From NCBI RefSeq assembly GCF_054482595.1, contig NZ_CM137008.1: DNA of 64,000 nucleotides. One strand, written 5' to 3'. Under the pieces are notes generated by a model. That model made no database searches. It was not told where the DNA came from and saw only the letters and a program-made list of their open reading frames with translations. Positions 2,942 through 24,633 of this stretch are shown here, piece by piece. Made by a program: the position numbers and the translations under genes. Every line of letters begins with the position of its first letter. The first letter of the stretch is position 1.

Positions 2942-3017
2942 GCCTGATGCGCTTCGCTTATCAGGTCTACAACCGAGCTAATGTATGCCGGATAAGGCGT
3001 TTACGCCGCATCCGGCA
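2942..3017. repeat. Two REP-type palindromic units (BIME-like) in the convergent yddE/nhoA gap
   Basis: gcctgatgcgcttcgcttatcaggtctac and gccggataaggcgtttacgccgcatccggca, typical enterobacterial REP palindromes; the overlapping + ORF 2947..3204 is spurious. Confidence 0.6.
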
Positions 3018-3875: not shown

Positions 3876-4047
3876 CAGGCGTTTCCCTTAGTGGTTTTCT
3901 CAACTTATAACCTGGAATAGACGCCGCACCGGCTATTTTGTGCGATCGCGGACATGCATCACGTTCGCAAATCGCCAATCCCGTTAATTTCGTTACTTAT
4001 TGCGTTACGGACTACGCTTAAAAAAACCTTCTTCGCGAGGCGATACC

Positions 4048-4617
4048 ATGAGCCGATTCATCCCCATAGAATTACACCATGCCAGCCGTCTGTTAAATCA
4101 TGGCCCAACTGTCTTGATCACCAGTTTCGATGAGCAATCCCAGCGGCGTAACATTATGGCTGCAGCCTGGTCAATGCCGGTGGAGTTTGAACCTCCACGC
4201 GTGGCGATTGTGGTAGATAAATCGACATGGACCAGGGAGTTGATTGAACATAACGGTAAATTTGGCATCGTTATCCCGGGCGTTGCAGCAACTAACTGGA
4301 CGTGGGCAGTGGGAAGTGTATCTGGGCGTGAAGAAGATAAATTTAATTGCTACGGCATTCCGGTGGTGAAAGGTCCGGTGCTTGGTTTGCCACTTGTTGA
4401 AGAGAAATGCCTGGCGTGGATGGAGTGCCGCCTGCTACCTGCGACTTCTGCGCAACAAAAATACGACACGCTGTTTGGCGAGGTGGTATCAGCAGCGGCA
4501 GACGCACGGGTATTTGTCGAAGGCCGCTGGCAGTTTGATGATGATAAGCTCAATACGTTGCATCATTTAGGTGCTGGCACGTTTGTTACCAGCGGCAAGC
4601 GAGTTACGGCGGGTTAA
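4048..4617 (+). CDS. yddH: Flavin reductase-like protein
   Basis: ORF 4000..4617; start placed at the internal Met (MSRFIPIELHH) to give about 189 aa. Confidence 0.75.
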   Translation: MSRFIPIELHHASRLLNHGPTVLITSFDEQSQRRNIMAAAWSMPVEFEPPRVAIVVDKSTWTRELIEHNGKFGIVIPGVAATNWTWAVGSVSGREEDKFNCYGIPVVKGPVLGLPLVEEKCLAWMECRLLPATSAQQKYDTLFGEVVSAAADARVFVEGRWQFDDDKLNTLHHLGAGTFVTSGKRVTAG

Positions 4618-20146: not shown

Positions 20147-21184
20147 TTAATCATCACCCGCCACGCGGATCACCACTTTGCCGAAGTTTTTACCCTTCAG
20201 CAGGCCGATAAACGTCTGTGGCGCATTCTCTAAACCGTCAGTAATTTCTTCGCGGTAGTGGATTTTATCCTCTTTCACCCATTGCCCCATCTCCCTCTGA
20301 AACTCATGGATGCGGTGACTATAATCCTGAGCGATAATAAAACCTTGCAAGCGAATACGTTTTTTCAGCACTGTAGCCATCAACAGAGGTAAACGATCCG
20401 GACCGGGTGGTAGCTCTGTAGCGTTATAGCTGCTCACTAATCCGCAGACGGGAATGCGCGCAGATGTATTAAGTAACGGTAGCACCGCATCGAATACCTT
20501 ACCGCCCACGTTTTCATAATAGATATCAATACCTTTTGGGCACGCTTTCGCCAGTTGTTCGGCAAAATCATCCGCGTGGTGATCAAGACAAACATCGAAG
20601 CCTAACACCTCGGTAGCATGGCGGCATTTTTCCGCGCCACCGGCTACCCCCACCACTCTGCAACCTTTAAGTTTGCCGATTTGCCCCACCGTCGCCCCCA
20701 CTGGTCCTGTCGCCGCAGCTACCACCAACGTTTCGCCCTCTTTAGGCTGACCGATATCCAGTAGGCCCATATAAGCGGTAAAGCCTGGCATCCCTAGCAC
20801 ACCCAGCGACCACGATGGATTTTGCGGATGATCGCCAAGTTTCACCAGATCATCACCACTGGATATGTCATAGTCTTGCCATCCACTGTAGCCCAGCACC
20901 CAGTCGCCAGACTGATAATCAGGATGATTCGACTCCACGACACGGCTCACCGTACCGCCGACCATCACGCCGCCAATATCAACCGGCGGTGAATAAGATG
21001 GCTCATCGCTCATACGTCCACGCATATACGGGTCCAGGGACAAATAAACTGTGCGCAGTAACACCTGTCCTTCACCCGGTGTGGCGACATCATCTTCTTC
21101 AAGACGGAAATTCTCCGGAACCGGTACGCCATGTGGACGCGAGGCCAGAACCCAACGTCGATTACGCTGCTTTTGTTGCCCCAT
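20147..21184 (-). CDS. curA: NADPH-dependent curcumin/dihydrocurcumin reductase (MDR superfamily)
   Basis: ORF 20147..21277; start placed at MGQQKQRNRRW for 345 aa. Confidence 0.8.
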   Translation of the reverse strand: MGQQKQRNRRWVLASRPHGVPVPENFRLEEDDVATPGEGQVLLRTVYLSLDPYMRGRMSDEPSYSPPVDIGGVMVGGTVSRVVESNHPDYQSGDWVLGYSGWQDYDISSGDDLVKLGDHPQNPSWSLGVLGMPGFTAYMGLLDIGQPKEGETLVVAAATGPVGATVGQIGKLKGCRVVGVAGGAEKCRHATEVLGFDVCLDHHADDFAEQLAKACPKGIDIYYENVGGKVFDAVLPLLNTSARIPVCGLVSSYNATELPPGPDRLPLLMATVLKKRIRLQGFIIAQDYSHRIHEFQREMGQWVKEDKIHYREEITDGLENAPQTFIGLLKGKNFGKVVIRVAGDD

Positions 21185-21364
21185 AATGCTCTCCTGTGCT
21201 TTTGGCATGAATCCATCAATAGTAGCAGGCTCGCAGGATTGGTTTTGTTTGCAGCCGTCACACCCCCTCTGCAACACGCAATAATTTCATCGAGGAATCC
21301 GTTGCTTCGGGCTGTTTTCGATAGTATTGATAACATCATCATCATTATTTTATTGAGGCCAGAC

Positions 21365-21883
21365 ATGTCCATCCGTTTTGCCCGCAAAGCCGACTGTGCT
21401 GCCATTGCGGAAATTTATAACCACGCCGTGTTGTATACGGCGGCTATCTGGAATGACCAAACGGTGGATGCAGATAACCGCATTGCCTGGTTTGAAGCGC
21501 GGACCATAGCAGGTTATCCGGTGCTGGTAAGTGAAGAAGATGGCGTAGTGACGGGATATGCCTCATTTGGCGACTGGCGTAGTTTCGATGGTTTTCGCCA
21601 TACCGTGGAACATTCGGTTTATGTCCATCCCGATCATCAGGGCAAAGGTCTGGGGCGTAAATTGTTAAGCCGATTGATTGATGAAGCGCGAGATTGCGGG
21701 AAGCATGTCATGGTCGCCGGGATCGAATCGCAAAATCAGGCCTCGCTGCATCTGCACCAGTCGCTGGGATTTGTCGTCACCGCACAAATGCCGCAGGTGG
21801 GCACTAAATTTGGGCGCTGGCTGGATCTGACATTTATGCAGTTGCAACTCGACGAACGCACTGAACCGGACGCGATTGGATGA
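21365..21883 (+). CDS. mnaT: GNAT-family L-amino acid N-acyltransferase
   Basis: Start placed at MSIRFARKADC within ORF 21131..21883; 172 aa; GNAT motifs. Confidence 0.8.
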   Translation: MSIRFARKADCAAIAEIYNHAVLYTAAIWNDQTVDADNRIAWFEARTIAGYPVLVSEEDGVVTGYASFGDWRSFDGFRHTVEHSVYVHPDHQGKGLGRKLLSRLIDEARDCGKHVMVAGIESQNQASLHLHQSLGFVVTAQMPQVGTKFGRWLDLTFMQLQLDERTEPDAIG

Positions 21884-22329
21884 ATCAGTCGCTCACCCTT
21901 GCCTTTTTGATTGCCGCCGGAATTGGTCTGGTAGTCCAGAACACGCTGATGGTGCGCATCACCCAGACCTCCTCTACCATTCTCATCGCCATGTTGCTGA
22001 ACTCACTGGTGGGGATTGTGCTCTTTGTTTCTATTTTATGGTTTAAACAAGGTATGGCGGGGTTTGGCGAACTGGTGTCCAGCGTGCGCTGGTGGACACT
22101 TATACCCGGCTTGCTGGGATCGTTTTTTGTCTTTGCCAGTATCAGCGGATATCAGAATGTGGGAGCGGCGACAACTATTGCAGTACTGGTCGCCAGCCAG
22201 CTGATTGGCGGTCTGGTGCTGGATATCTTCCGCAGTCATGGCGTACCACTACGGACATTGTTCGGCCCAATTTGTGGCGCAATTTTACTTGTGGTTGGCG
22301 CCTGGTTGGTAGCCAGACGCTCATTTTAA
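21880..22329 (+). CDS. ydcZ: Inner-membrane protein (DMT-like)
   Basis: 149-aa hydrophobic ORF; ATGA overlap with mnaT. Confidence 0.8.
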   Translation: MNQSLTLAFLIAAGIGLVVQNTLMVRITQTSSTILIAMLLNSLVGIVLFVSILWFKQGMAGFGELVSSVRWWTLIPGLLGSFFVFASISGYQNVGAATTIAVLVASQLIGGLVLDIFRSHGVPLRTLFGPICGAILLVVGAWLVARRSF

Positions 22330-22563
22330 TCACAGGATGGTGCCGCCTTTGGTTAACTGTTCATGGCGCGCTTCCATATCTTCTTTATGCTTGCGACCGT
22401 GATGAGCAATAGCGGTGCGCAAACGCTGCTGCTGGGTGTAGCGATCTTCCCGACTTAACTCCGCGTCATCGCTCAGAGCGATTAATAATTCGTTCATATG
22501 GGCAATGACGCTCTCTTCAATCGCGGCATCCACGCGCGCGATGACTTCATCCAGATGCGACAT
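22330..22563 (-). CDS. ydcY: Small uncharacterised protein
   Basis: 77-aa ORF; synteny. Confidence 0.65.
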   Translation of the reverse strand: MSHLDEVIARVDAAIEESVIAHMNELLIALSDDAELSREDRYTQQQRLRTAIAHHGRKHKEDMEARHEQLTKGGTIL

Positions 22564-22648
22564 ACTTTCTCCTTAGCCACTTGTGAAATTTATCGATTCA
22601 TCCAAATGATATAAGTCTGCGTGGTGCCGTCAAGCCAGTGAGTAAGAT

Positions 22649-22822
22649 TTAAAACAGTGAAAACAACAGCGCCACCGGGAAACTCATCGGCCATGTTGCC
22701 CCCACCAGAAAGGCGCTTAAGAAACGGATGCGTTTCTTATCGTGAGAAAGAAACCAGGTGATAAGAAATGCGATTGCTGCCATAACCGCATAAAAAACAA
22801 GCATGTGTTGATAGAGAGACAT
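22649..22822 (-). CDS. ortT: Orphan membrane toxin OrtT (GhoT-like)
   Basis: Start placed at MSLYQHMLVFYAV within ORF 22649..22897; 57 aa, two hydrophobic helices. Confidence 0.7.
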   Translation of the reverse strand: MSLYQHMLVFYAVMAAIAFLITWFLSHDKKRIRFLSAFLVGATWPMSFPVALLFSLF

Positions 22823-23006
22823 GTACGGGCGTCCAGCCAGATGAATAAAACGCGCGCAAATATGCGTCATTTTTTGATGTGCATCAAGTTTTTTCACCAG
22901 TTAGAGAAAAAATCATCAAACAGCAACTTGCCCTTATCCATCTTCAGAATGAGTATTATTGCGGATTTTCTTAACCCGTACTATACACATAGGGGCAATG
23001 ATAAAA

Positions 23007-23102
23007 GGTGGCAAAAATGAATGTTTCCAGTAGAACTGTAGTACTGATAAATGTCTTTGCTGCTGTTGGTTTGTTTACTCTTATCTCTATGAGATTTGGC
23101 TG
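23007..23102 (+). CDS. yncL: Small membrane protein YncL (31 aa)
   Basis: atg at 23007 with SD aaaggtgg upstream; encodes MNVSSRTVVLINVFAAVGLFTLISMRFGWFI; too short for the ORF track. Confidence 0.6.
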
Positions 23103-23208
23103 GTTTATTTGATGTAGTGATTTTGCACGCAGCACGTACTGTCAGAGAAATCAGTGCTCTGACAGTACGCAAGATCATCTCATACTCTTACGATCTGCAA
23201 TATTATCC

Positions 23209-24633
23209 TTAATGTTTAACCATGACGTGGCGGACGACGGTGTAATCCTCCAGCCCATAAAGTGACATATCCTTGCCGTAACCAGAAAGTTTCTGCCCAC
23301 CGTGCGGCATTTCACTTACCAGCATGAAATGGGTATTGACCCAGGTACAACCATATTGCAGCCGTGCGCTGACGCGATGCGCCCTGCCCACATCTTTCGT
23401 CCATACCGAAGATGCAAGTCCGTACTGGCTGTCATTCGCCCAGTTCACCACCTGTTCTTCGTTGTCGAAGGGCGTAACACTCACTACTGGACCAAATACC
23501 TCTTTTTGCACGATGGCATCGTCCTGTAATGCGCCAGCCAGCAGCGTCGGCGCATAGTAATAGCCATTACCCTTGCGCTTTTCACCGCCAGTGATCACTT
23601 TGATGTGCCCTGTCGCTTTCGCCTCTTCTACTGCCTTGCTGACGCGTTCGAGATGCGCCAGCGAGCTTAAAGGTCCAAGCTCCGTAGACTCGTCATCCGG
23701 CGCACCAGATTTTAACGTTGCCACCGCAGCACCCAGTTTTTCCACCAGCGTATCGTAAATGCCTTTTTGCGCGTAGATCCGACAAGCCGCAGTACAATCC
23801 TGTCCAGCATTGTAATAGCCAAATGTACGTACACCTTCGACCACTGCTTCAATATCCGCATCATCAAAAACAATCACTGGCGCTTTGCCACCAAGTTCCA
23901 TATGAGTACGCTTAATGGACGACGCGGTATGGCTGATGATGTGCTCGCCGGTGGCGATAGAGCCCGTCAGCGACACCATCCGCACTTTGGGATGACCGGT
24001 CAGCGGATCACCCACCGTTTTGCCTCTGCCAAACAGTACGTTAATCACGCCTGCCGGGAAGATATCTTTCGCCAGCTCTGCCAACTTCAACGCGGTCAGC
24101 GGGGTAATTTCTGATGGTTTAAGCACTACGCAGTTCCCTGCCGCCAGCGCCGGAGCCAGTTTCCACGCTGCCATCATCAGCGGATAATTCCACGGTGCGA
24201 TAGAAGCCACGACCCCCAACGGATCGCGACGGATCATCGAAGTATGACCTTCAAGATATTCACCTGCCGCCAGACCATTCAGACAGCGCGCCGCACCCGC
24301 GAAAAAGCGAAAAACATCGACAATCGCCGGGATTTCATCATTGAACGCACTATGCAGCGGTTTGCCACAATTACGGGACTCCAGTTCGGCAAAAACCTGA
24401 CCATTTTCTTCGATAACATCAGCCAGTTTCAGCAGACATTCCGCACGCACTTTCGGCGTGGTTTGCCCCCATTCGGCAAATGCTGCATCTGCCGCGCGCA
24501 CAGCAGCATCGACCTGCTCTGCGGATGCCTCGGCAATCTCCAGTAAAACGTCCCCCGTTGCCGGATTATAGACAGGCTGTTTTTCCCCTTCGCCGCTAAC
24601 CAGTTCTCCGTTAATCAGTAACTTATGTTGCAT
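23209..24633 (-). CDS. patD: Gamma-aminobutyraldehyde dehydrogenase
   Basis: 474-aa aldehyde dehydrogenase ORF; synteny with ydcSTUV. Confidence 0.9.

Follow-up and report, generated by a model that had tools for sequence, protein, structure and literature searches.

The small membrane-protein genes ortT and yncL, which lie between ydcY and patD in a 64-kb window (the whole stretch of DNA that was analysed), are very probably two independently transcribed, divergent genes of the E. coli core chromosome, both of which start at their annotated ATGs. The window derives from the E. coli chromosome, and the 1.2 kb around ortT and yncL are 100% identical to E. coli THO-010, whose RefSeq annotation was mapped onto the window to obtain the gene coordinates (locus position 3001 corresponds to window position 22300; Table 1). 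The locus matched 5415 of the 5426 complete genomes of E. coli. Mobility of the two genes, as suggested by matches to E. coli 'plasmid' entries, was rejected because the PLSDB records concerned are multi-megabase or chromosomal-type. The initial annotation had named both genes and placed them between ydcY and patD from the sequence alone. This is borne out by RefSeq, which gives the product names 'orphan toxin OrtT' and 'stress response membrane protein YncL' to these genes across thousands of genomes of the species, and by protein-family matches (PF10753 and NF000537) far above the cut-offs. Both are real genes that were annotated and studied before, and the finding is, except for a 10-nt slip in the position of yncL, correct but ordinary.

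With both genes present in RefSeq and each the subject of dedicated papers, the finding itself matters little. It does exemplify how an ORF track with a length threshold hides or mis-starts small genes, as ortT was displayed with 82 aa and yncL was displaced by a spurious antisense ORF of 65 aa, and the corrected yncL coordinates are useful to those who reuse the finding. The pairing of yncL with ortT, combined with an FNR box at a fixed distance, provides a testable lead on the control of an antitoxin-less membrane toxin. If a YncL-OrtT partnership were true, OrtT would not be truly orphan, and a functional link would be of moderate relevance to the toxin-antitoxin and small-protein fields.

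Table 1. Features of the ortT-yncL locus (positions refer to the window)
Feature	Position	Strand	Remarks
ydcY	22330..22563	−	RefSeq; DUF2526, PF10735
ortT (ydcX) CDS	22649..22822	−	RefSeq; 57 aa + stop; two-helix inner-membrane toxin, GhoT/OrtT family
In-frame ortT extension	22823..22897	−	82-aa mechanical ORF from GTG 22897; not coding
Candidate ortT promoter	22859..22887	−	Inferred; −35 TTGATG (22887..22882), 17 bp, −10 CATATT (22864..22859), then GCGCGCG
FNR-consensus palindrome TTGATGTGCATCAA	22874..22887	.	Centre ~58 nt upstream of ortT ATG; perfect dyad TTGAT-N4-ATCAA
Possible yncL −35 TTGCGG	22959..22964	+
Candidate yncL −10 CTATACA	22981..22987	+	σS-like: C at −13 + TATACA
65-aa ORF antisense to yncL	22981..23178	−	ATG start; spurious
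yncL Shine-Dalgarno AAAGGTGG	23004..23011	+	Contains GTG 23008, which opens a 34-aa mechanical ORF
yncL CDS	23017..23112	+	RefSeq; 31 aa + stop; single-helix membrane protein
Hairpin between convergent yncL and patD	23134..23170	.	12-bp perfect stem
patD	23209..24633	−	RefSeq

Identity, fold and published biology of OrtT and YncL

The coordinates and the length first given for ortT are identical to the RefSeq annotation (protein WP_000061178.1). The product was recognized by the Pfam model PF10753 (Toxin_GhoT_OrtT) with an E value of 8.3e-28 and 96.9 bits (gathering cut-off 22.1), with residues 4–57 spanning the whole profile (positions 1–55 of 55). Its description as a two-helix peptide agrees with two hydrophobic segments parted by SHDKKRIR, with the two maxima of the Kyte-Doolittle profile (GRAVY 1.11) and with an AlphaFold2 model (16-sequence alignment, mean pLDDT 74.5) that contains helices at residues 3–27 and 29–56. 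Residues T43, W44, P45, S47, F48 and P49 are invariant in the 16-sequence alignment. As for the orphan status of the toxin, no ghoS-like gene adjoins ortT, its neighbours being ydcY and yncL, and the Pfam scan returned no GhoS-family match for the products of these two neighbours. YncL consists of a single hydrophobic stretch (GRAVY 1.39) and matches residues 1–30 of 30 of the NCBIfam equivalog NF000537 (E 1.8e-20, 72.5 bits, cut-off 35). The local Pfam copy holds no model for YncL, and the precomputed labels of its orthologues read PF28073:YncL.

Production of OrtT from pCA24N is toxic, damages the membrane, depletes ATP and arrests growth (PMC4344625). In the same study, ortT was induced under stringent conditions, neither YdcY nor GhoS nor flanking intergenic RNA could neutralise the toxin, and a genomic-library screen for an antitoxin found none (PMC4344625). 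Production of YncL leads to sublethal membrane depolarisation and nucleoid condensation; its inducers include heat shock and growth in minimal medium, and detection of the protein by Hemm et al. is cited in the same paper (PMC12542507). YncL is also a substrate of RseP that is degraded in vivo (PMC10470546). The data on OrtT toxicity and YncL depolarisation were all obtained by plasmid expression. The text of the ribosome-profiling preprint of Weaver et al. mentions neither ortT nor yncL.

The observations from the window and the published work combine as follows. OrtT is a 57-aa helical-hairpin inner-membrane peptide whose accumulation harms the membrane, leads to a collapse of the proton-motive force and of ATP and brings growth to a halt. 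Because no antitoxin was found, ortT is presumably restrained through control of its expression. YncL is a membrane protein of 31 aa with one helix, and it is produced under conditions of σS activity or stress. A control region of 194 bp is common to both genes and contains a candidate σS-type promoter for yncL and an FNR site just upstream of, or overlapping, the candidate ortT promoter.

Comparison with known systems places both proteins in familiar company. OrtT of E. coli K-12 (YdcX) is encoded by the same gene at the same chromosomal position and has the same 57 aa without a detected coding difference; the spacers of 194 bp upstream and 85 bp downstream are those quoted for K-12 (PMC4344625). 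GhoT, the toxin of the type V GhoT/GhoS system, is of the same PF10753 family and the same size, shares 63% identity and a membrane-lytic action with OrtT and likewise loses its toxicity upon F38R exchange (PMC4344625). In contrast to ghoT, which is co-transcribed with ghoS and whose mRNA is cleaved by GhoS, ortT has no adjacent ghoS-like gene. The Salmonella YncL (STnc1110/STM14_1932, NF000537) shares with the E. coli protein its 31 aa, one hydrophobic helix, a strong Shine-Dalgarno (SD) sequence and a σS-type −10 element. YohP, TisB and HokB are, like OrtT and YncL, short hydrophobic inner-membrane peptides that lower the membrane potential and push cells toward low metabolic activity. One study dealt with YncL and YohP together, and YncL has the degradation by RseP in vivo in common with HokB, but none of these three peptides shows a sequence relationship to OrtT or YncL. 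The genes also appear to differ from those of type I toxins: an antisense RNA antitoxin is neither known nor was one detected here, and type I loci usually carry long structured 5' UTRs, whereas the leaders inferred for ortT and yncL are short.

FNR box and candidate promoters in the shared spacer

The ATGs of ortT and yncL are separated by 194 bp, and a cross-genus alignment of this spacer revealed three conserved blocks. One of them is the FNR-consensus palindrome, whose half-sites are conserved while its central 4 nt are variable. This dyad is the sole match in the 64-kb window, where 0.13 matches are expected. The half-sites keep a fixed distance to the ortT ATG in Escherichia, Salmonella, Citrobacter and Intestinirhabdus, with Klebsiella as the exception; in 14 of 16 loci, this distance is 55–61 nt. 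Read on the ortT strand, the box is perfect in the window (TTGATGCACATCAA), whereas the K-12 box (TTGATGCACGTCAA) contains one mismatch (…GTCAA). The K-12 spacer was bound by FNR in a ChIP-chip experiment (PMC1802558), and the supplements to a ChIP-seq study list a strong FNR peak there (PMC3688515). In Table S9 of that study by Myers et al., the spacer peak is among the sites without an FNR-dependent expression change in glucose minimal medium (PMC3688515). Anaerobic cultures of CFT073 showed an approximately 12-fold increase of ydcX, which is part of the list of NO/nitrate-induced genes (PMC5320621). This induction would fit a relief of FNR repression and is compatible with it without amounting to proof. 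A SELEX peak of the σS holoenzyme lies within the same spacer (PMC5493296). The binding of FNR and of σS polymerase to this spacer is therefore already published and not new.

The second conserved block, CCGTACTATA, is situated beside yncL and is invariant in Escherichia, Salmonella, Citrobacter, Intestinirhabdus and Klebsiella. It holds the candidate yncL −10 element, and the core CTATAC is placed 35–37 nt upstream of the yncL ATG in 16 of 16 loci. If this element is used as its sequence suggests, yncL transcription would start near 22994. On the ortT side, AATATGC (around 22859..22865) and CATCAA are invariant or nearly so in 11 taxa, and the candidate ortT promoter is composed of these two elements. 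If its −35 element is read as TTGATG, the FNR site overlaps the candidate −35. With CATATT as the −10 element, ortT transcription would start at about 22852 and the position of FNR would imply repression; a start at about 22839 would instead place the centre of the FNR site at −41.5 and imply class II activation. The exact promoters and transcription start sites, as well as the direction of FNR control, are inferred. The consensus promoter/terminator scan called neither the ortT nor the yncL promoter, and its 2 promoter-like matches compare with 2.0 in shuffled sequence. Two terminator-like matches from the scan, one within ortT and one in the spacer, probably arose by chance. Beyond the promoter-like blocks and the FNR box, the alignment contained no conserved spacer elements; an undescribed antisense RNA could still exist.

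Two further observations concern the promoters of this region. A GC-rich stretch, GCGCGCG at 22851..22858 on the minus strand, is conserved directly after the candidate ortT −10 element. GC-rich discriminators usually mark promoters that are inhibited by ppGpp. At ortT, a gene reported to respond to stringent conditions with induction, such a run is unexpected. In the 85-bp spacer between ortT and ydcY (22564..22648), a promoter-like sequence, TTGACG-16-TATCAT, is located at 22606..22633 on the minus strand and has 10 of 12 matches. This sequence is a candidate promoter of ydcY, in line with the published statement that the two genes do not form an operon.

Gene neighbourhoods and the pairing of yncL with ortT

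The first survey of gene neighbourhoods was anchored on ydcY, which avoided a bias toward ortT or yncL, and covered 80 species-level loci. The genes ortT, yncL and patD were found beside ydcY in only six of them, all from Escherichia, and in other genera a gene for a 532-aa ABC substrate-binding protein is located upstream of ydcY. A restriction of ortT and yncL themselves to Escherichia was nevertheless rejected, since look-ups anchored on OrtT and YncL place the pair in Salmonella, Citrobacter, Intestinirhabdus and Klebsiella. The Escherichia-specific feature is the junction of ydcY and ortT, while the ydcY–ydcZ arrangement is conserved across the Enterobacteriaceae. In Salmonella, the gene order is patD, yncL, ortT, srfC, srfB. 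Citrobacter retains this order with inserted AraC and MFS genes or a T6SS-type island, Intestinirhabdus carries a GH25 lysozyme gene in place of patD, and in Klebsiella small hypothetical genes separate yncL from patD. The srfC and srfB genes that adjoin ortT in other genera are absent from the ortT flank in the window. Overall, the outer neighbours vary on the ortT side (ydcY, srfC, a hydrolase gene or a T6SS-type island) as well as on the yncL side (patD, a CatB-like gene, AraC and MFS genes, a GH25 lysozyme gene or small hypothetical genes).

The arrangement of the two small genes is constant: in 16 of 16 loci they are divergently oriented with a spacer of 179–198 bp, even though the outer neighbours change on both sides. 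These 16 loci were chosen for carrying both genes and comprise Escherichia, Salmonella, Citrobacter, Intestinirhabdus and Klebsiella as well as two further lineages. An independent test of the pairing was provided by the contexts retrieved with YncL as query, namely those of K. pneumoniae and of the two most divergent YncL representatives, and in each of them an OrtT-family gene adjoins yncL. With 9 representatives at 50% identity, the YncL family is very small. Buttiauxella, Kosakonia and a large Pantoea plasmid carry OrtT-family genes but no yncL. A discussion of the ortT–yncL pairing across genera was not found in the literature searched, where the OrtT paper is the only one that names both genes and uses yncL as a landmark (PMC4344625).

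These neighbourhoods bear on the question whether the two genes form a functionally coupled module, in which YncL would modulate or neutralise OrtT or both would act as graded depolarisers. The divergent spacing that persists despite differing outer neighbours, the adjoining OrtT-family gene in every YncL-query context and the small size of the YncL family are in favour of such a module, and both proteins depolarise the membrane (PMC4344625, PMC12542507). In addition, the 'UTR' construct of the OrtT study comprised 217 bp upstream of ortT, corresponding to the spacer and approximately 23 nt of yncL, so that full-length YncL was not directly tested with it (PMC4344625). On the other hand, OrtT-family genes in Buttiauxella, Kosakonia and Pantoea exist without yncL, the genomic-library screen yielded no antitoxin and YncL itself is mildly toxic. 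The taxa with the pair are all fairly close relatives, and selection against insertions into a region of back-to-back promoters could explain the pairing without coupling at the protein level. We therefore consider a coupled module unlikely, while still the best of the alternatives to two independently transcribed genes. The narrower proposal that YncL is an obligate partner of the OrtT family, linked to it through the FNR- and σS-bound spacer of ~190 bp and modulating or possibly antagonising the toxin, is viewed with slightly more doubt.

In Kosakonia, two OrtT-family genes are arranged in tandem with no yncL detectable nearby (4001..4443 in both L086 and L087). The first copy was called with 60 aa that include a 57-aa conserved core, and the second has 57 aa and shares ~65% identity with OrtT of E. 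coli. In Pantoea, another 57-aa ORF next to the OrtT homologue resembled a tandem copy at first but was rejected as unrelated.

Translation starts, coding selection and misleading open reading frames

The single error in the initial annotation concerns the position of yncL, a matter of observation rather than of interpretation. The gene had been placed at 23007..23102, which has the same length of 96 nt as the annotated CDS but is shifted by 10 nt. Translation of that interval is out of frame and gives GGKNECFQ, an internal stop and then NCSTD, and its end coordinate drops the last 10 nt of the gene. Translation of 23017..23112 yields MNVSSRTVVLINVFAAVGLFTLISMRFGWFI followed by the stop codon. 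The good SD sequence ascribed to yncL is indeed present: AAAGGTGG is located 5 nt before the ATG, and its duplex with the anti-SD has a predicted energy of −7.2 kcal/mol, compared with −9.1 kcal/mol for ydcY and −4.3 kcal/mol for patD.

Conservation of yncL was evaluated in an alignment of 11 taxa that spans four genera. The GGTGG of the SD sequence and the ATG are both invariant among them, and GGTGG is kept in K. pneumoniae. Among the 16 loci with both genes, 15 carry GGTGG, and the exception, GCA_019237635, has GGAGG. The GTG three codons upstream of yncL is part of the SD sequence itself (AGGTGG); in 5 of the 11 taxa it is not among the in-frame upstream starts, since their spacing between SD sequence and ATG deviates by 1–2 nt. 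Variable columns are concentrated at the third codon position (8/5/22 for positions 1/2/3), and the pairwise dN/dS values range from 0.09 to 0.21. This pattern, the low dN/dS and the invariant SD sequence and ATG demonstrate selection on the protein.

Such codon-level selection also argues against the view that the main or an additional function of the yncL transcript is that of a regulatory sRNA (a dual-function RNA), with the peptide being secondary. In Salmonella, the yncL mRNA was initially listed as an sRNA, STnc1110, and a Flag-tagged YncL was not detected there; in the same work, however, translational (lacZ) fusions to yncL were expressed and required σS (PMC5437024). A phenotype is known for the YncL protein (PMC12542507). 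RIL-seq pairs yncL with the sRNA KilS, but lists it as a target and not as a regulator (PMC8175672). A search of 21800..24000 against Rfam at E ≤ 1 gave no match, including none to a catalogued sRNA or to the STnc1110 family. The remaining point in support of an RNA function is the conserved hairpin at the end of the yncL transcript, in which compensatory changes occur. All in all, a mainly or additionally regulatory role of the transcript appears improbable, more so than either form of coupling to OrtT.

The hairpin lies between the convergent yncL and patD genes and folds better than shuffled sequence on the plus strand (z −3.3). RNAalifold identified compensatory changes in 9 of its 19 pairs among Escherichia, Salmonella and C. 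amalonaticus. A T-run follows the hairpin in Salmonella but is absent in E. coli on both strands, and the structure is a probable 3'-end or terminator structure. The lack of a T-run in E. coli agrees with published evidence that the transcripts of patD and yncL overlap, the two being listed as a convergent excludon (PMC12288877). In approximately 22% of the complete E. coli genomes, the yncL–patD junction (~23113..23218) is unaligned and the match breaks at query position 919. The one genome inspected in this respect contains a gene for a CatB-related O-acetyltransferase inserted between yncL and patD (L093, 5215..6024).

For ortT, only a weak SD sequence (CTGGA, −3.3 kcal/mol) precedes the ATG at 22822. 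Sequence context by itself is therefore insufficient to assign 22822 as the true start, and comparative evidence is needed. This evidence agrees with the earlier claim that translation begins at 22822 and that the gene is shorter than the ORF on the track, as the ATG is kept in the 11 taxa and PF10753 covers the 57-aa core. The Pfam alignment begins at residue 4 of the 57-aa form, which corresponds to residue 29 of the 82-aa form. No in-frame start upstream is conserved among the 11 taxa, and such starts are entirely absent from E. whittamii and Escherichia sp. E1V33. Salmonella and Citrobacter contain an extra in-frame ATG 3 codons upstream, so that a 60-aa form is possible in these genera. 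Variable ortT columns are likewise concentrated at the third codon position (24/12/50), with pairwise dN/dS values of 0.05–0.10. In the literature consulted, no experiment that mapped the native ortT start was found. An ATG→ACG mutant was made in the His-tagged pCA24N construct (PMC4344625); this exchange shows that the protein is needed and does not tell which chromosomal codon is used.

The initial annotation had rightly remarked that both genes fall below or are obscured by the threshold of the ORF track. The mechanical ORF of yncL, opened by the GTG at 23008, has 34 aa and is shorter than the default of 60 aa, and ortT is displayed only in its 82-aa form (22649..22897, minus strand). The minus-strand ORF that had been described as antisense to yncL and as spurious exists, overlaps the gene and does not behave as coding sequence: its pN/pS is 0.85–0.93, in comparison with 0.15–0.29 in the yncL frame, and it is interrupted by an internal stop in C. 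amalonaticus. It has a weak SD sequence and no Pfam match. Opposite hydrophobic codons, long open antisense frames are to be expected. In the taxa examined, the frames antisense to yncL are open for 38–73 codons. The in-frame extension of ortT has no SD sequence before the GTG at 22897, and among the aligned sequences only those of the two E. coli rows contain this GTG, 25 codons upstream of the ATG. Outside Escherichia, these 25 codons are not conserved as protein, and stops interrupt them in S. salamae, Citrobacter sp. and C. amalonaticus. That these longer frames are the real genes, with ortT starting at GTG 22897 or the 65-aa ORF replacing yncL, is hardly credible: both frames are open in the window, public OrtT entries from automatic gene callers range from 53 to 97 aa and one caller annotated an 81-aa ORF antisense to yncL in Citrobacter, but the unconserved, SD-less extension lies outside the PF10753 core and the antisense frame has a pN/pS near 0.9, a stop in C. 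amalonaticus and no family match. The same artefact of the ORF track is seen at mnaT, for which the mechanical ORF (21131..21883, plus strand) has 250 aa and the annotated protein 172 aa (21365..21883).
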